Of a stretch of 64,000 nt of DNA, positions 1,832 through 62,962 are shown piece by piece. This DNA comes from Patescibacteria group bacterium (GTDB lineage: Bacteria; Patescibacteriota; Patescibacteriia; CAIXNZ01): assembly GCA_028714455.1 (NCBI GenBank), contig JAQTMG010000002.1, positions 102,047 to 166,046 on the forward strand. Reading direction: 5' to 3'. The position numbers were made by a program, and so were the translations under genes. Below the pieces are notes generated by a model that was not told the origin of the DNA, did not search any database, and worked only from the letters and a program-made list of their open reading frames with translations. Position 1 is the first letter of the stretch. Each line of letters opens with the position of its first letter.

Positions 1832-1925
1832 AAAAAATCGGGGATGAACTGGGCAAAAATTCATCCCCGCAGACAAGGAGGAGTGTTTCTCTATTTATTT
1901 TTTATATAGCCCGCTCCAAGAAAAA

Positions 1926-2000
1926 GGGGGGGCCAAATCGACGTGGTGGTTGGGCCGTTTCACGAGGGGAGCCCGAGGTACGCCGATTTGACCCCGTCCC
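1926..2000. other. long GC-rich imperfect hairpin, possible small RNA
   Basis: A G7 run plus CAAATCG pairs with CGATTTG plus CCCC(G)TCCC around a GC-rich apex. On the minus strand it is followed by TTTTTC. Confidence 0.3.
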
Positions 2001-2083
2001 AAAGGAGTATGATTAATTTACTACATGTGATATTTTCTGTCAAATGATTGAATTTTTTTATTTTTAGTGATAAATTATTATAT

Positions 2084-2370: not shown

Positions 2371-2455
2371 GCCCTTTGTCATTCCGAACCGCAGTGAGGA
2401 ATCCAGGACTTATGGATTCCACGCTACGCTCTGAATGACTATTGCGACAAAGGGC
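2371..2455. repeat. cargo-less copy of the GIY-YIG-associated hairpin element
   Basis: GCCCTTTGTCATTCCGAACCGCAGTGAGGAATCC and GGATTCCACGCTACGCTCTGAATGAC..GACAAAGGGC form an inverted repeat. The arms match those flanking the GIY-YIG gene at 59694-60099. Confidence 0.75.
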
Positions 2456-2463
2456 ATTAATTT

Positions 2464-3921
2464 ATGGAACTTAACCAACTCACAATCAGAGAAGCTCACG
2501 AAAAGCTGCAAAACGGCGAGATTTCCAGTTTAGAATTGGTCAATGCTTGCATTGAGCGCATCAAAAAGACTGACAAAAAGTTGCACTGCTTTTTAGCCAC
2601 TGATTTTGATAACGCGATTAAACAAGCCAAGGAGGTTGATAAGAAAATCAAAAAAGGCGAGAAAATAAAAATGCTGGAAGGTATTCCTTGCGGCATTAAG
2701 GATTTGATTTTAACCAAAGGCATTACCACAACTGCTTCTTCAAAAATGCTGGAACATTATGTGCCCTTGTTTGACGCCACGGTCATTAAGCGACTAAAAG
2801 ATAACGGCGCCATTATTTTAGGCAAGCAAAATTGCGATGCCTGGGGTCATGGCGGTTCAACTGAAAATTCAGATTATGGACCAACGCATAACCCCTGGGA
2901 TTTAACTAGGGTACCAGGGGGTTCTTCTGGCGGCAGCGCAGCTGCTACTGTTTCTGACCAGGTTATTTATTCATTGGGTACAGATACTGGTGGTTCAATC
3001 CGCTGTCCGGGAGCGCATTGTGGCGTGGTTGGCTTTAAGCCCACTTATGGCCGAGTACCGCGTTTTGGCGCCGTGGCCATGGGTTCTTCTTTGGACACAA
3101 TCGGACCGCTCGCCAAATGCGTTGATGATGCAGCCATTGTTTTAAACGCCATTGCCGGCCTGGACGCTAATGATGGCACAACCCTACCTAAACCAGTGCC
3201 TGACTACACTAAAATGAAAGATAAAGGCGTGAAAGGCCTGACCATTGGTTTACCCAAAGAGGCGTTTGGCAAGGGCTTGCAACCAGAAGTTAAAGCGGCA
3301 ATTGACAAAGCAGTTGAAGATTTGAAAAAGCTGGGCGCGAAATTTAAAGAGGTCTCTTTGAAATATATTGATTATGGCTTGGCTTGTTATTACATTATTA
3401 TGCCTTCAGAGGTTTCTTCAAATTTGGGAAGATATGACGGCATTAGATATGGCCATCAATCAAAGGAAGCTGATAATTTGTTTGAAGTTTATACCAAATC
3501 ACGCGCCGAGGGTTTTGGCGCCGAAGCCAAGCGCAGAATCATGATCGGCACTTATGTTTTGTCAGCCGGTTATTATGACGCTTATTATAAAAAAGCCATG
3601 CAAGTGCGCACCCTGATTAAAGAGGATTTTGAAAAAGTTTTGAGCGAAGTTGATTTGATTTTAATGCCCACCTCGCCTCGGCCTGCTTTTAAACTCGGCG
3701 AAAATACCAGTGATCCACTGACAATGTATCTGGAAGATATTTATACCGTGACTATAAACATGGCTGGCGTACCAGCTGCTTCAATTCCATGCGGTTTTGT
3801 GAATAATCTGCCAGTTGGTATGCAGCTGATTGCAAAACAATTAGGCGAAGAAAAGATTTTTCAGGCGGCTTATGCTTATGAAGCGGTTAATGGCTGGAAC
3901 AAGGTTAAACCAAAACTTTAA
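2464..3921 (+). CDS. gatA: Glu-tRNA(Gln) amidotransferase subunit A
   Basis: 485 aa with the amidase signature GGSSGGSAAA and a full-length GatA-like sequence. Confidence 0.95.
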   Translation: MELNQLTIREAHEKLQNGEISSLELVNACIERIKKTDKKLHCFLATDFDNAIKQAKEVDKKIKKGEKIKMLEGIPCGIKDLILTKGITTTASSKMLEHYVPLFDATVIKRLKDNGAIILGKQNCDAWGHGGSTENSDYGPTHNPWDLTRVPGGSSGGSAAATVSDQVIYSLGTDTGGSIRCPGAHCGVVGFKPTYGRVPRFGAVAMGSSLDTIGPLAKCVDDAAIVLNAIAGLDANDGTTLPKPVPDYTKMKDKGVKGLTIGLPKEAFGKGLQPEVKAAIDKAVEDLKKLGAKFKEVSLKYIDYGLACYYIIMPSEVSSNLGRYDGIRYGHQSKEADNLFEVYTKSRAEGFGAEAKRRIMIGTYVLSAGYYDAYYKKAMQVRTLIKEDFEKVLSEVDLILMPTSPRPAFKLGENTSDPLTMYLEDIYTVTINMAGVPAASIPCGFVNNLPVGMQLIAKQLGEEKIFQAAYAYEAVNGWNKVKPKL

Positions 3922-4660: not shown

Positions 4661-6862
4661 ATGATTAAAAAAACCTATCATGTCCAGGGCATGGATTGCG
4701 CGGCTTGCGCTGTCCAGATTGAAAAAAAATTAAGTAAAATGCCTGAAATAAAAAAAGTCGTGGTTAATTTGGCCACTGGCATGCTTAATATTGAATCAGA
4801 CAATGAGATTCCTTTTGAAGTTTTGCAAAAAGCTGTCGAGGATATTGGTGCTTATAAATTGCACAAAATGGAACCTGGCGCGGCCGGACACGAACACGGC
4901 GCGATGTTGAAAGAAGCGGAAATTAAGAAATTAAGAAATAAAACGATTTTTGGCGTGATTATTTCTGTCCTGGTGATGATTCTGTCTTATTCTCAATTTA
5001 TTCCAATTCTTAATCAGATTTCAAATAATGTTATAAACCTTTTACTTTTGGTTCTGGCCGCGGCCGTGCAGATCTGGTTGGGTTGGCAGTTTTACAAAAG
5101 CACCTGGGGTAGTTTAAAAAGCTTTAACTCGAACATGGATACCTTGATTGCTCTAGGCACGACAAGCGCTTTTGTTTATTCTTTAGCAGCCGTGATTTAT
5201 TCAATAATTAGTAATCAAAATGTTGGCACCTATTTTGACACGGCTGTTGTAATCTTAACTTTAATTATTTTGGGCAAATATCTGGAAGCCAGGGCCAAGG
5301 GCAAGGCCTCTGATGCTATTAAGAATTTAATTAAACTCCAGGCCAAAATTGCGCACCTCATGGTTAATGGGGTGGAAAAAGAAATTGAGCTTGATCAAGT
5401 TAAAATTGGCGATTTAATCATCGTCAGACCCGGTGAAAAAATTCCGGTTGACGGTGAAATTGTTGAGGGCGAATCCTCGATTGACGAAAGCATGATTACT
5501 GGCGAAAGTTTGCCGGTTGATAAAAAGATTGGCGATAAAGTAATTGGTTCAACAATAAATAAATCCGGCTCTTTTACTTTTAAAGCGGAAAAAGTCGGCG
5601 CTGACACTGTTTTGGCCCAGATCATTAAATTGGTTGGCGAAGCCCAGGGCACAAAAGCGCCCATTCAAAATCTGGCTGATATAATCTCCGGCTACTTTGT
5701 GCCGATCGTTTTGTTAATTGCCCTATTTACCTTTATTATCTGGCTTATTGCTGGCCAGGCCTTTGTTTTTTCTTTGGTCATGGGAATTTCCGTTTTAATT
5801 ATTGCCTGTCCGTGCGCACTTGGGTTAGCCACACCAACCGCGATTATTGTCGGCACTGGCAAGGGCGCGCAAGAGGGGATTTTAATTAAGAATGCCGAAG
5901 GCCTGGAAAAGGCCGAGAAAATCAACGTACTTTGTTTTGATAAAACAGGCACTCTGACCGAGGGCCAGCCAGAGGTTCTAAACTTTTCAGACGAGGATAC
6001 TTTAAAGATCGCTTATTCGCTGGAGTCAAAATCAGAACATCCTTTTGCCGCCGCCATCACTAAAAAAGCGCTGGAATATAAATTTGAGCCGCAAAAAATA
6101 ATTGGGTTTAAAGCAATCACTGGCCGAGGCATTTTGGCCAGCATTGAAAATGAAAAATATTATCTTGGCAATCAGGAATTTTTAGCCGAGCAGGGGATTG
6201 AGTTGCCGGCCGAGACCAAAGCAAAAATTTTGGCAGAAGAAAATTTGGCGCGCAGCGTTTTACTTTTGGCAGATGAAAAAAAATATCTGGGTTATATTTC
6301 ACTGGCTGATCCGATTAAGGAAAATGCCAAGAGTTCGATAGACTTATTAAAATCAATGAACATCAAGCCGGTTCTGATGACAGGCGACAATTCAAAGACG
6401 GCCGAGGTCGTGGCTGGTATTTTAGGCATCAATGAGTGGTATGCCAAGATCCTGCCAGATGAAAAGCAAAAGAAAATCTTGAGTCTGCAGGCTGATGGTA
6501 ATAAAGTTGGCATGGTTGGCGACGGTATAAATGACGCGCCAGCTTTAACCCAGTCGGACCTGGGCATTGCCATGGCCACCGGCACTGACGTGGCTATTGA
6601 ATCAGCGGACTTTGTTATTTTAAAAGGCGATTTGAATAAAGTTATCAAAGCCTTGGTTCTTTCCAAAAAAACCATGTCCACGATCAGGGGTAATTTGTTC
6701 TGGGCCTTTATCTATAATATTATCGGCATTCCCATCGCCGCCGGCATTTTATTTCCGTCAACTCATCTTTTGCTTTCCCCGACCATTTCAGCCGCGGCCA
6801 TGGCTTTTAGCTCTTTGTTCGTGGTTTTAAATTCCTTATTGCTAAAACGCGCCAGGATATAA
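4661..6862 (+). CDS. copA: copper-translocating P-type ATPase
   Basis: N-terminal HMA domain [11 protein letters not shown] motif, DKTGT and GDGINDAP. Confidence 0.95.
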
Positions 6863-58519: not shown

Positions 58520-59694
58520 ACCAAAATCAAAAACTAAACATTTTAATGTTTAACATGTCCAAATATAGCGATTGGCAAAAAGGTGTAGTCAATCGCAATT
58601 TTCATATTTTACATAATTTAGCTAAGCGTGATGAAATTAATAAAATAATTGCGGTTGATTTTTTACCTTTTAATTGGAAAAGAGCAATAAAAACTTTTAT
58701 CTACGACCAGATTTTAAAAGACACAAGAGGCACAATTTGTTTTGGGGATTTAACTTCTCAATGCTGGCAAATCTCCAGCAAAATTTTAGTCTATTCAACT
58801 ATTGATTCTATTTTAAATAAAAAAAGAATTATTACGGAATTAAAAAGAATTTTAGACAAAGAGGGGATGAATAATAATTTGATCGTCTGGAACTACAATC
58901 CAATGTATATTGATTATTTTAACCAATTCAAGCAAAGGCTAAATATCTTTGACACGGTCGACAATTGGCTTGAACATTCAAGCTATCAAGAATATAAAAA
59001 TTTACTTCAGAAAAATTACGACACAATTAAGGATGGCAGTGATCTGATTTTTACCGTTTCAGAAAACTTGAAACAAAATCTTTTTAACAACCAGGAAAGC
59101 GCTCACTGGATTCCGAATGCCGTTGATTTGGATTATTTCCAAAACCAGACAAACATCTCGCCAAAATTACAGAATATTCCCAAACCGATTATCGGTTTTC
59201 TGGGAATTTTACAAGACAGAATTGATCTTGAAATTCTGCTAAATTTAGCCAAAAATAACCCTGAAAAATCTTTAATTTTAGCCGGTCCTGTTTGGAAAAA
59301 TTTTCCCAGAGAAAAATTTAACGGCTTAAAAAATGTTTATTTTCTTGGCCCAATAGGTTACTCGGAAATTCCGTCGCTTTATAACGGCTTTGACGTCGGC
59401 ATTATTCCATACAAAATCAACGCCTTCATCAAATCAACTGATCCCATGAAATATTATGAATATCTGGCGGCCAATTTGCCGGTGGTTTCAACTCCGGCGC
59501 CGGGCATTGAAAGATTTGGCAATTTAATTAAAGTTGCCAAAACACCCGAAGAATTTAATGTAATGGTTAATCAAGCCTTGAGTGAAGGAAAAGATAGGCA
59601 AAGAGAAGAAAGAATAAAGATTCTTCAAAATAATACGTGGGGCGACAGAATTGAAGAAATGTTAAAATTAATAAACGCAAGGTGGTCCACATAG
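58516..59694 (+). CDS. glycosyltransferase (GT-B like)
   Basis: C-terminal PMKYYEYLAANLPVVS motif. It lies in an operon with the other GTs. Confidence 0.6.
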   Translation: MNQNQKLNILMFNMSKYSDWQKGVVNRNFHILHNLAKRDEINKIIAVDFLPFNWKRAIKTFIYDQILKDTRGTICFGDLTSQCWQISSKILVYSTIDSILNKKRIITELKRILDKEGMNNNLIVWNYNPMYIDYFNQFKQRLNIFDTVDNWLEHSSYQEYKNLLQKNYDTIKDGSDLIFTVSENLKQNLFNNQESAHWIPNAVDLDYFQNQTNISPKLQNIPKPIIGFLGILQDRIDLEILLNLAKNNPEKSLILAGPVWKNFPREKFNGLKNVYFLGPIGYSEIPSLYNGFDVGIIPYKINAFIKSTDPMKYYEYLAANLPVVSTPAPGIERFGNLIKVAKTPEEFNVMVNQALSEGKDRQREERIKILQNNTWGDRIEEMLKLINARWST

Positions 59695-60099
59695 TCATTC
59701 CGAGCGTAGCGCGAGGAATCCATAACATCGATTAATATGAAACAATATTGCGTTTACATAATGACTAACAAAAGTGACTCCGTGGATTATACCGGCATAA
59801 CGAATAATTTATTTCGAAGAGTATACGAGCATAAAACCCATTTTAATGAGAAGAGTTTTACTTCAAAATATAATATCAATAAATTAGTTTATTTTGAGGA
59901 ATATAATAATCCCGATCAAGCCATATACAGAGAAAAGCAAATAAAGGGCTTGAGTAGAGAAAAAAAATTTAATTTAATAAAAACTATCAATCCTGATTTT
60001 AATGATTTGGCCAGAGATTGGTATAAAGATAGCCAGGCCGAGCGCAAAGAACAACCGACTCAACCTAAATCATAGATTCCACGCTGCGCTCTGAATGAC
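59694..60099 (+). mobile_element. GIY-YIG gene nested between inverted hairpin arms
   Basis: The left arm GTCATTCCGAGCGTAGCGCGAGGAATCC (59694-59721) and right arm GATTCCACGCTGCGCTCTGAATGAC (60075-60099) are mutually complementary. They touch the stop codons of the flanking and cargo genes. Confidence 0.65.
59737..60075 (+). CDS. GIY-YIG nuclease family protein
   Basis: CVYIMTN...YTGITNNLFRRVYEH...E..K motifs of the GIY-YIG fold. Confidence 0.85.
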   Translation: MKQYCVYIMTNKSDSVDYTGITNNLFRRVYEHKTHFNEKSFTSKYNINKLVYFEEYNNPDQAIYREKQIKGLSREKKFNLIKTINPDFNDLARDWYKDSQAERKEQPTQPKS

Positions 60100-61501: not shown

Positions 61502-62962
61502 ATGTCAGATATAACAAATCTCTTAAAAAATAATAAAATCCAAATATTTTTGGCTATTTTAATCATTGAAATACTTTCTTTAATTAGTTTTAAAATTACC
61601 TGGCTTTCAGGAATATTTTTTGTCTTAATCTGTCTAGGCGTTTTAATTTTAACCTGGCGCAAATTAGAAAATGGCGTCTTGATTGCCTTGGCTGAATTGA
61701 TAATTGGCTCACAAGGATATTTATTTTATCTGATGTTACCCGGATTTAAGGTCTCAATTCGTCTGGGAATTTTTCTGATTGTATTTTTTGTCTGGTTATT
61801 TAAATATTTCAACTTCAGGAATTTCCTCAATTTATTGAGGAAGGATAGGCTAGTTCAAAATTTCATTTTACTTTTAGTTTTTATTGCTTTTGGCGCAATC
61901 AATGGTTTAATTCACAAAAATGGCGCTAGCAATGTTTTTTTTGATCTAAACGGTTATTTATATTTCGGACTCTTTTTTGTCTTTCTGGATGCTTTCAAGG
62001 ATAAAGAATTACCCAATAAATTTATTAATGTTTTACTTGCCGCTTTAACCTATGTTTCTCTGGAAATATTTTTTACTCTTTATATTTTCTCACATTCAAT
62101 TCCATATTTGCCTGATTTATTTTACCACTGGATTCGCGATACCAGGGTAGGGGAGATTACTTATGCCGGCGCTAATTTTTTCCGCGTTTTTTTCCAGTCG
62201 CAAATCTGGACGCTGGAAAGTATATTTATTATTCTATGCATTCTGTTATTAAATAAAAAGTCCAAGTGGCTATATATTCTCTTAATCTTTCTTCAAACTT
62301 CCATTCTAATCAGTTTTGCCCGCAGTTTCTGGCTTGGCGGCGCCGTGGCTATGGCGTTTTTATTCGGTTATTTAATTTACACTCGAATAAAAGAATGGCA
62401 GAAATTATTAAAAAATATTGGCTTAATGATTAGCGCTGCTATTCTAAGTGTTGTCTTGATTTTCGCGATTGCCAATTTTCCATTACCCAAACCCACGGCT
62501 TATTTTACGGCTGATATGTTAGTTGGCAGATTTACTCTGTTTAGCGATGCCGCTGCTTCTAGCCGCTGGCAAGAGCTGCCAGTGATTTTGGAAAAAATAA
62601 AAACCAGCCCCATTTTTGGCGCTGGCTTTGGTTCCACTATTACTTATAAAACCGAGGATCCGCGAATCAAAAATACCGATAATCCAGAAGGCTGGTATAC
62701 CACCTACACTTTTGAATGGGGTTTTTTAGATACGATTACGGAAATTGGTATTATTGGTTTATTGGTTTATTTAGTTTTTATCGGCCAGATCTTTTATCTG
62801 GGGCTTAAGGGCAGGGGAGAGAATTGGCTAAAAATTGGTTTGTTACTCGGTTTGATTGCTTTAGTAATAACTAATATCTCCAGTCCATATTTGAATCATC
62901 CACTGGGTATTGGCTATTTGCTTCTCTGTGCTGGAATATTTGAATCAAGATTGTCCGATTAA
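61502..62962 (+). CDS. O-antigen ligase/polymerase-like membrane protein
   Basis: About 12 TM helices with a Wzy_C-like loop region. It lies in the glycan cluster. Confidence 0.6.
   Translation: MSDITNLLKNNKIQIFLAILIIEILSLISFKITWLSGIFFVLICLGVLILTWRKLENGVLIALAELIIGSQGYLFYLMLPGFKVSIRLGIFLIVFFVWLFKYFNFRNFLNLLRKDRLVQNFILLLVFIAFGAINGLIHKNGASNVFFDLNGYLYFGLFFVFLDAFKDKELPNKFINVLLAALTYVSLEIFFTLYIFSHSIPYLPDLFYHWIRDTRVGEITYAGANFFRVFFQSQIWTLESIFIILCILLLNKKSKWLYILLIFLQTSILISFARSFWLGGAVAMAFLFGYLIYTRIKEWQKLLKNIGLMISAAILSVVLIFAIANFPLPKPTAYFTADMLVGRFTLFSDAAASSRWQELPVILEKIKTSPIFGAGFGSTITYKTEDPRIKNTDNPEGWYTTYTFEWGFLDTITEIGIIGLLVYLVFIGQIFYLGLKGRGENWLKIGLLLGLIALVITNISSPYLNHPLGIGYLLLCAGIFESRLSD

Follow-up and report, generated by a model that had tools for sequence, protein, structure and literature searches.

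A clamped head-to-head dimer of Ssn-related hairpin motifs, probably inserted as a block, fills the gatC-gatA spacer of a Patescibacteria genome

Introduction

SsnA, a single-domain GIY-YIG protein of 94 amino acids (CDD cd10448), is encoded between NTS/SRM repeats, whose hairpin it binds solely as single-stranded DNA (ssDNA) and in one orientation to cut a few nucleotides (nt) upstream, with neither double-stranded DNA nor RNA being acted on (Chenal et al., Nat Commun 2025, PMC11893778). The same study, in which four SsnA proteins were characterized biochemically, found the base triplet upstream of the palindrome to be important for cutting and the C that follows it for binding, reported one or more repeats close to 71% of the Ssn homologs and on both sides of 42%, and showed that SsnA lowers transformation of N. 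meningitidis by repeat-bearing DNA; its authors have also remarked on the insertion sequence (IS)-like NTS-ssnA-NTS architecture (PMC11893778). Here we have analyzed a stretch of 64,000 nt from the genome of a Falkowbacteria-like Patescibacteria group bacterium (contig JAQTMG010000002.1 of assembly GCA_028714455.1), which in its full length is referred to as the window. In this window, a palindrome of 85 nt located between gatC and gatA is very likely a clamp-closed head-to-head dimer of Ssn-related motifs, which was inserted as a block, has its partner in the gene of an SsnA homolog at positions 59737-60075 and travels as a passenger in the gatCA transcript.

Two further bodies of work bear on this element. 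The CGTC-tagged REPs carry an unpaired CGTC, TGTC or CCTC tag, a stem that starts with an A-T followed by a T-A pair, and a CCA tail (Di Nocera et al. 2013, PMC3733652). They occur mostly as head-to-head dimers, some of which reside in longer palindromes that were never found empty and some within genes, they comprise four families, mainly of Proteobacteria, and include neisserial dRS3 and the Rickettsia elements RPE-4 and RPE-6, and they 'apparently' have no dedicated transposase (PMC3733652). The mini-hairpin DNA d(GCGNAGC), or d(GCGNNAGC), which melts near 80 °C as DNA and at 39 °C as RNA, is known as a curiosity of physical chemistry and from ssDNA phages, where it occurs in origins and promoters (PMC13037366).

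Results

The palindrome at 2371-2455, which is imperfect, makes up nearly the entire 95-nt spacer (2369-2463) between gatC (2084-2368, + strand; 94 amino acids, Pfam PF02686 GatC, 1.3e-14) and gatA (2464-3921, + strand; 485 amino acids, Pfam Amidase, 3.7e-147, with homologs named GatA by their sources), as had been stated in a preliminary description of this DNA. It begins 2 nt after the gatC stop codon, and its end, after which the tail AUUAAUUU follows, lies 8 nt short of the start codon of gatA. Inverted repeats and folding define the whole unit, which has no strand of its own, as a clamp that encloses two arms in head-to-head arrangement. The halves of the clamp, GCCCTTTGTC at 2371-2380 and GACAAAGGGC at 2446-2455 (both read on the + strand), are complementary at 10 of 10 positions, and the last three bases of the left half at the same time form the GTC tag of the left arm. 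This arm (GTCATTCCGAACCGCAGTGAGGAATCC, 2378-2404, + strand) is separated from the right arm (GGATTCCACGCTACGCTCTGAATGAC, 2414-2439, - strand) by a strandless 9-nt spacer, AGGACTTAT, at 2405-2413, which is comparable to the inter-arm spacers of related dimers, such as AGGACTGAATG and AGGACATCATA. Read on the + strand from 2378 to 2403, the hairpin motif of the left arm consists of GTC, ATTCC, GA, ACCGCAGT, GA, GGAAT and C. The motif of the right arm, GTCATTCAGAGCGTAGCGTGGAATC as read on the - strand of 2415-2439, contains the core GCGTAGC and one non-standard pair in its outer stem. The two arms, the 9 nt between them and the additional outer clamp are all found as first described, to which we add six bases, TATTGC (2440-2445, no strand), that lie unpaired inside the clamp between the right arm and the right clamp half and form a bulge in the minimum-free-energy structure; related units contain 3-7 additional nt at the matching position. 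The fold of the unit is highly stable both as RNA (-37.1 kcal/mol, z = -5.6) and as DNA (-20.9 kcal/mol, z = -5.3), with none of 200 shuffled sequences folding as well in either case. Taken as a whole, the gat unit is a small non-coding element of 85 nt with terminal inverted repeats, and related units are found in about 12 metagenome contigs.

A second element of the window carries a gene between its arms. Its left arm (GTCATTCCGAGCGTAGCGCGAGGAATC, 59694-59720 or, as aligned, 59694-59721, + strand) and its right arm (GTCATTCAGAGCGCAGCGTGGAATC, 60075-60099 or, as aligned, 60074-60099, - strand) are 352-353 nt apart and enclose an ssn-like gene for a single-domain GIY-YIG nuclease of 112 amino acids (59737-60075, + strand; Pfam GIY-YIG, 3.1e-14), in line with the cargo of 353 nt that had been contrasted with the 9-nt spacing of the gat unit. 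The right arms of the two elements are identical at 24 of 26 positions. One of the differences, the only one that had been noted before, resides within the 25-mer GATTCCACGCT[A/G]CGCTCTGAATGAC, and the other concerns the base that precedes it, which is G in the gat unit and A in the GIY-YIG element, whereas the left arms diverge chiefly in their inner loop. In all four arms, GTC directly precedes and C directly follows the palindrome, and the stems read ATTCC...GGAAT. The tail is CCA in three arms and CTA in one, the center is GCGTAGC or GCGCAGC in three of the four, and the tag extends to TGTC at 2377-2380 and at 60100-60097 (- strand) and to AGTC in the other two.

As a test set beforehand, the likeness of the arms had to exceed what chance would produce, and it does so by three measures. 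The string GTCATTCNGA occurs four times in the window, exclusively in the four arms, against a chance expectation of 0.28, no chance match to the arm pattern of 25 nt arises in 100 shuffles when at most 3 mismatches are allowed, and a covariance model built from foreign arms (R1, see below) recovers the left arm of the GIY-YIG element (33.1 bits, E = 2.7e-5), the left gat arm (31.4 bits, E = 6.5e-5, also supported by the arm alignment), the right arm of the GIY-YIG element (24.5 bits, E = 2.5e-3) and the right gat arm (23.6 bits, E = 3.8e-3), with the next match following at E = 2.2. Although the arms are short, which would favor a coincidence, these results, with nothing else scoring in 64 kb and the right arm recurring in 26 contigs, leave practically no room for the view that the palindrome is GC-rich sequence whose likeness to the flanks of the GIY-YIG gene has arisen by chance. 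Judged by their sequence, the four arms are homologous.

The arms of the gene-bearing element overlap with stop codons. In the TAG of the upstream glycosyltransferase gene (59692-59694), the last letter doubles as the G of the GTC tag in the left arm, and the TAG that terminates the ssn-like gene (60073-60075) reaches one base into the right arm.

The encoded nuclease has the Pfam GIY-YIG domain, which spans residues 3-79, as its sole domain, and its homologs are 85-126 amino acids long. Its AlphaFold model (pLDDT 86.7) shows one compact domain and a disordered tail, with UPF0213 (1zg2) and the nuclease domain of Slx1 as closest solved structures. In a pairwise comparison, it shares 38% identity with the N. 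gonorrhoeae ortholog of SsnA over 92 amino acids (E = 2e-22). This ortholog, an open reading frame (ORF) of 94 amino acids bordered by canonical NTS repeats, is matched at E = 3e-13 in a tblastn search of a plasmids collection, a value below the E < 1e-10 that serves in Chenal 2025 as working criterion of homology to N. meningitidis SsnA. Tyr 6, Tyr 17 and Glu 64 of SsnA align with Tyr 7, Tyr 18 and Glu 66 of the window protein, of which Tyr 18 and Glu 66 are invariant and Tyr 7 is nearly so among 24 aligned homologs. The match to the SsnA ortholog, the alignment of the two tyrosines and the glutamate, and the flanking motifs thus identify the product of 59737-60075, at the level of sequence, as an SsnA homolog and the window as harboring an Ssn gene together with its motifs. 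Database searches retrieved 3,715 relatives at E <= 1e-5, with identities of about 60%, in bacteria of the candidate phyla radiation, Ignavibacteria, Bacteroidota, Planctomycetota, Nitrospirota and other groups; NCBIfam contains no model that matches the nuclease, and a search with its exact sequence found no identical record. Carriage by phages was considered and rejected, as few close homologs reside on viral contigs and a search with the arm model through the 14 best of 44 viral-contig loci with a homolog (at most 57% identical to the window protein) detected none of the arms.

The association between nuclease and repeat extends far beyond the window, as found in 80 genome loci that contain a homolog of the nuclease with 48-62% identity and represent more than 15 phyla. 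In a typical locus, the ORF is located within inverted arms. Each of these opens with GTC and closes with C, and in between the two complementary halves of a 5-nt stem enclose a small inner hairpin, which is preceded by GA and followed by GA or GAA. A strict finder detects 470 arms in 1.14 Mb compared to 60 in shuffled sequence and places a + arm upstream and a - arm downstream of the gene at 43 of the 80 loci (54%), with a one-sided arm at 21 more, in agreement with the published shares of 42% for both sides and 71% for one side or more. The outer stem varies by lineage, with ATTGC, ATCCT, ATTCT, ATTCC, ATGCT, ACTTC and ACCCT among its versions, and it does so in a concerted manner. When, to avoid circularity, arms were picked by their left half alone (GTCA-NNNN-GA), the matching right half was present in 62-93% of the cases per stem type and a non-matching type in at most 7%, except for ATCGC, whose left halves are in 22% paired with the partner of ATTGC, which differs by one base. 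At loci with at least two stem types, 217 of 293 left halves have their own partner and 5 that of another type. The seed alignment of 36 foreign-arm sequences that underlies R1 shows changes on both sides in six of seven pairs, including the inner 2-bp stem, which was never a criterion of selection, whereas GTC and the trailing C are invariant; these are the bases that were found to be critical for cutting and binding in the mutagenesis of SsnA (Chenal 2025). The layout GA-xx-GNA-xx-GA (where N is any base) is shared by 99 of 137 short arms, with GCGNAGC as commonest core, and GC-GNA-GC is found in 61 of the 99 canonical short arms of other phyla. Pairs of loci with the same stem type encode proteins of 60.6% identity compared to 56.4% for pairs of different type, a difference reached in none of 2,000 permutations but confounded by host relatedness, and the stem type thus tracks protein similarity weakly. 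A search of the literature for strings of the arm sequence gave no match.

Several observations favor DNA as the level of the conserved structure. The arms are present in both orientations, G-T mismatches show no excess over A-C mismatches on the tagged strand, and the core is of a kind that is much less stable as RNA than as DNA. Rfam at gathering thresholds reports three tRNAs as sole matches in the window, at permissive E-values it gives matches at chance level between 1850 and 2500, and in seven repeat-rich loci it finds nothing on the arms. On these grounds a known RNA family and a structure formed at the level of RNA were both rejected, and we favor the view that it is the ssDNA hairpin of each individual arm that is conserved. 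The long hairpin formed between the arms appears in a different light. A relaxed finder has located 135 candidate dimers, some of them spurious, in 63 loci, each with a + arm ahead of a - arm and no gene; of these, 80 combine arms of differing stem type, which breaks the pairing between the arms at the covarying positions. Since the arm hairpins are kept while the inter-arm pairing is lost, the long stem is best described as a by-product of the inverted arrangement and the clamp. Of all arms, 26% are located inside ORFs of at least 100 amino acids, with such ORFs covering 82% of the bases.

Two further arrangements were observed within this family. In an Oscillospiraceae locus (L006, 2215-2736), the ssn ORF has a gene-less dimer on either side and overlaps at its 3' end with a + arm; the placement of the gene inside a dimer is therefore not universal. 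In L066 (5557-5699, 7391-7753, 16592-16759), L019 and L077, truncated 5' half-arms consisting of GTCATCCTGAGCC and 7-10 further nt are stacked two to three deep outside of full arms, symmetrically around dimers, and look like footprints of repeated events at the ends of arms.

The history of the gat unit can be read from the corresponding spacers of relatives, whose comparison had been suggested at the outset. An identical gatC locus was found in L001 (exact GatC match). At 93% identity of GatA (L084), the spacer of 70 nt is another dimer of the same architecture with stems ATGGT/ACCCT and no clamp, which spans 324-393 (GTCATGGTGAGACTCTCGAACCATGAC ... CCCTTCGAGAGCCTCAGGGTGAC) and ends 8 nt before the ATG; this variant could be an independent insertion or a replacement in place. 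At 79% (L086), the unit is absent and a 55-nt AT-rich spacer contains no hairpin, and at 78% the spacer either carries unrelated GC-rich palindromes, CGGCGGCTTTAGCCGCCG and CGGCCGCTAAAGCGGCCG (L087), or is another unrelated sequence (L088). In L087, where these features cover 419-516 and 1988-2056, a clamp-bearing motif dimer is also present just downstream of gatA. The Logan contig L002, which contains an identical gatC, stops at position 1406 with ...CCCTTTGTC, the first bases of the repeat.

These comparisons bear on a reading in which the hairpin has been selected as cis-acting RNA element of gatCAB, as an attenuator, a terminator, a stabilizer of the mRNA or a regulator of gatA translation. 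The stability of its RNA fold, its end at 8 nt before the gatA start codon, which is repeated in the relative with 93% identity, and the A- and T-runs in many related units, which resemble those of bidirectional terminators, would all suit such a role. However, the element is not conserved, units of this type are also found downstream of unrelated genes and within an ORF, none matches an Rfam family, and the features that are conserved are those of a DNA hairpin. A terminator scan made no call at the hairpin, where the stem is present and followed by the tail AUUAAUUU, in part because the scan is limited to loops of 3-8 nt. We thus consider a selected RNA element improbable. The gat hairpin is most likely a passenger in the gatCA transcript, and since it is not conserved among relatives, any effect that it exerts on the RNA would be incidental.

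Clean and direct evidence that dimer units are gained as a block in this lineage, even inside genes, comes from the comparison with L115, a genome of Candidatus Falkowbacteria (GCA_016927685.1). In L115, the element with the nuclease gene occupies the orthologous position and has the same glycosyltransferase genes as neighbors; both overlaps of stop codons and arms are seen there too, and its left arm contains GCGTTAGC. At 6760-6843, it harbors an 84-nt unit of clamp and dimer, CCGCTCTGTC...GACAGAGCGG, which is placed in frame in the gene of a Wzy_C-family membrane protein and adds 29 residues, PLCHPERSEGSKTLGVIDSSHSFGMTERV, that are missing from the ortholog in the window according to both tblastn and DNA alignment. 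In the window gene (61517-62959), the empty site lies at 62266/62267 (+ strand) and contains no clamp. The clamp therefore travels with the dimer, and 2371-2455 are the natural boundaries of the gat unit. The in-frame insertion of L115 resembles the palindromic elements found in genes of Rickettsia.

Units of the same kind are spread in metagenomes. The exact 25-mer of the right arm was found in 26 contigs, of which about 12 contain gene-less dimers, and most metagenome dimers are enclosed by clamps that pair perfectly but vary widely in sequence, in many cases next to runs of A and T. Units that are identical down to the clamp recur in non-orthologous contexts (L096 and L102; L108 and L101). 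The A-run and T-run flanks had suggested that the clamp might be a pre-existing terminator hairpin into whose loop the dimer was placed, which is ruled out as general explanation by the clampless empty site, the recurrence of clamps in non-orthologous contexts and the lack of such a hairpin in the gat spacers of relatives. The recurrence of the same clamps also led us to reject the outward growth of the palindrome by template switching. We conclude that the gat unit is a lineage-specific insertion of repeat DNA as a block.

How such a block would be inserted leads to the strongest competitor of this reading, in which the hairpin is an active mobile element of the MITE/REPIN type and Ssn mobilizes it on ssDNA in the manner of IS200/IS605 and of RAYT enzymes. 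This view overlaps with ours but adds mobilization to it, which would make the arms something other than passive tags for recognition. The in-frame block of L115 with its empty site in the window, the identical clamped units in non-orthologous contexts and the large excess of dimers over genes are all expected from such an element; the stacked half-arms suggest it as well, and the IS-like architecture noted for ssnA (PMC11893778) is in keeping with it. This evidence is opposed by the lack of a direct repeat indicative of target-site duplication, which was looked for beside both the gat unit and the L115 insertion, by the fact that GIY-YIG enzymes have no known transposition chemistry and SsnA has been shown to cut but not to join DNA, and by the orthologous position of the gene-bearing copy in two species. 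Moreover, the clamps of near-identical dimers can be wholly different, which is hard to reconcile with the copying of one master element. Active mobility of this kind is thus a possibility to be taken seriously, but one that we doubt. In its specific form, the proposal would state that clamped Ssn dimers with GA loops and GCGNAGC cores move in bacteria of the candidate phyla radiation as units of 84-85 nt into the spacers of essential operons and, in frame, into genes, mobilized by Ssn on ssDNA; this we put forward as a speculation, with slightly greater reserve still.

A different role of the nuclease would be that of a homing enzyme, with the hairpin as empty site and the gene spreading through the cleavage of gene-less dimers and a repair that copies it into the central spacer. 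At the 43 loci where it is located between a + and a - arm, the gene nearly fills the space between them, and in L056 a gene-less and a gene-bearing dimer share the first 6 nt past the left arm, as homing would predict. However, no filled and empty pair was found for the gene, other layouts exist, such as that of L006 with the gene between two dimers, SsnA as published cuts upstream of the hairpin and thus outside of the dimer rather than in its center, and the gene occupies the same locus in the sister species. Homing is accordingly quite unlikely, even somewhat more so than a function in RNA. Of the preliminary interpretation, the part that regarded the gat palindrome as gene-less copy of the flanks of the GIY-YIG gene has stood, whereas nothing shows that it is either a landing site or a derivative that has lost the nuclease gene. 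In fact, since gene-less head-to-head dimers are the common state, as seen in the 135 candidates and in the right-arm contigs, where the nuclease gene accompanies the arm in 1 of 26, the loss of a gene finds no support.

Outside of the unit, the AT-rich spacer between murB and gatC contains a GC-rich stretch at 1835-2012 (- strand) that folds into a long irregular hairpin (-63.4 kcal/mol, z = -3.6). On the same strand, it is associated with a promoter-like site at 2043-2015 and a strong terminator-like hairpin at 1869-1839. Although it has no match in Rfam even at E <= 10, this minus-strand stretch may be an unclassified small RNA.

Discussion

The properties of the gat hairpin investigated in this study suggest how it might interact with the partner nuclease, whose gene is flanked by one arm of each type. 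By analogy to SsnA, the arm at 2378-2403 would fold when the + strand becomes single-stranded and the arm at 2439-2415 when the - strand does so, and the nuclease would bind the folded arm solely as ssDNA and dependent on its orientation, requiring the upstream GTC and the trailing C. The cut would be placed a few nt 5' of the GTC tag and thus just outside of the dimer, with the + strand predicted to be cut near 2373-2375 and the - strand near 2443-2444. We infer that the enzyme of the window acts on the four arms and that it cuts at these positions, and in the Patescibacteria cell the outcome might be the restriction of incoming ssDNA, the spread of the repeat, or nothing.

Several of our observations count against this assignment and have to be weighed. 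The published SRM search string, HGTCWYN(0-2)YYVSBRHN(0-5)WNVSBRGN(0-2)RNCYNB, fails to match any of the four arms in the window or any of 357 arms from the 80 genome loci, although it does detect the NTS of Neisseria. The arms thus represent a variant architecture, whose recognition by Ssn we deduce from gene linkage. The nearest-neighbor energies of single arms as DNA range from -0.2 to -4.9 kcal/mol, with the two right arms as the weakest (-0.4 and -0.2 kcal/mol); in these, one pair is a non-standard A-G and GT takes the place of GA, and their stability does not exceed that of shuffled sequences. Only two elements are visible in the 64 kb of the window, and the gene-bearing one occupies the same locus in a sister species, from which it follows that the nuclease gene has not been recently mobile. 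Even so, the homology of the arms, the relationship of the nuclease to SsnA and the filled and empty sites lead us to retain the description of the gat hairpin as block-inserted dimer of Ssn-related motifs with high confidence.

This description places a Patescibacteria genome in the recently defined Ssn/SRM system. Since the arms found here and in the 80 loci escape the published string, the reported counts of SRMs probably underestimate the spread of the system. Ssn enzymes are under development as tools for the site-specific cutting of ssDNA, and the variant pairs of nuclease and hairpin are candidate reagents in this respect. Locally, the hairpin explains the unusual length of the gatC-gatA spacer and probably also why the short-read contig L002 ends at this position. 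If Ssn indeed mobilized these units, it would provide the missing mechanism of mobilization for 'orphan' REPs of the CGTC type and would reveal a class of Ssn sites that is invisible to the published string.

The comparison with described systems defines both the novelty of the element and its affinities. The centers of three of the four window arms, GCGTAGC or GCGCAGC, are those of the mini-hairpin DNA, and the literature that we have found on d(GCGNAGC) does not mention it as core of a genomic repeat family. With REP/REPIN elements and their RAYT enzymes, the units share short tagged hairpins, the inverted arrangement of dimers, a lone nuclease gene set between its own repeats and the recognition of a hairpin in ssDNA; in contrast, RAYTs are HUH tyrosine transposases, the tag is GTAG and there is no sequence relationship. 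Compared by description, the resemblance to CGTC-tagged REPs encompasses the A-T/T-A start of the stem, the CCA tail in three of four arms, the dimeric arrangement and, in two of the four arms, the TGTC form of the tag; in both groups, some dimers are also part of longer palindromes and some copies reside within coding sequence. The hairpins thus fit into this superfamily, although no dedicated enzyme was found there whereas the repeats of the window are partnered with a nuclease gene. It is in the Ssn system that such a partnership has been described. The window differs from it in its host, a bacterium of the candidate phyla radiation, in the terminal clamp of its dimers, and in arms whose stem measures 5 bp and which combine tandem GA/GA loops with a GCGNAGC core, in place of the fully paired 8-bp ATTCCCGC/GCGGGAAT stem of the NTS. 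It agrees with it in a GIY-YIG protein of about 94-112 amino acids with 38% identity and aligned catalytic Tyr/Tyr/Glu, in a gene enclosed by inverted hairpin repeats, in which a GTC tag leads into a stem whose first bases are AT and the palindrome is followed by C, and in the many intergenic copies without a gene, the share of loci flanked on both sides being 54% here compared to 42% in the published set.

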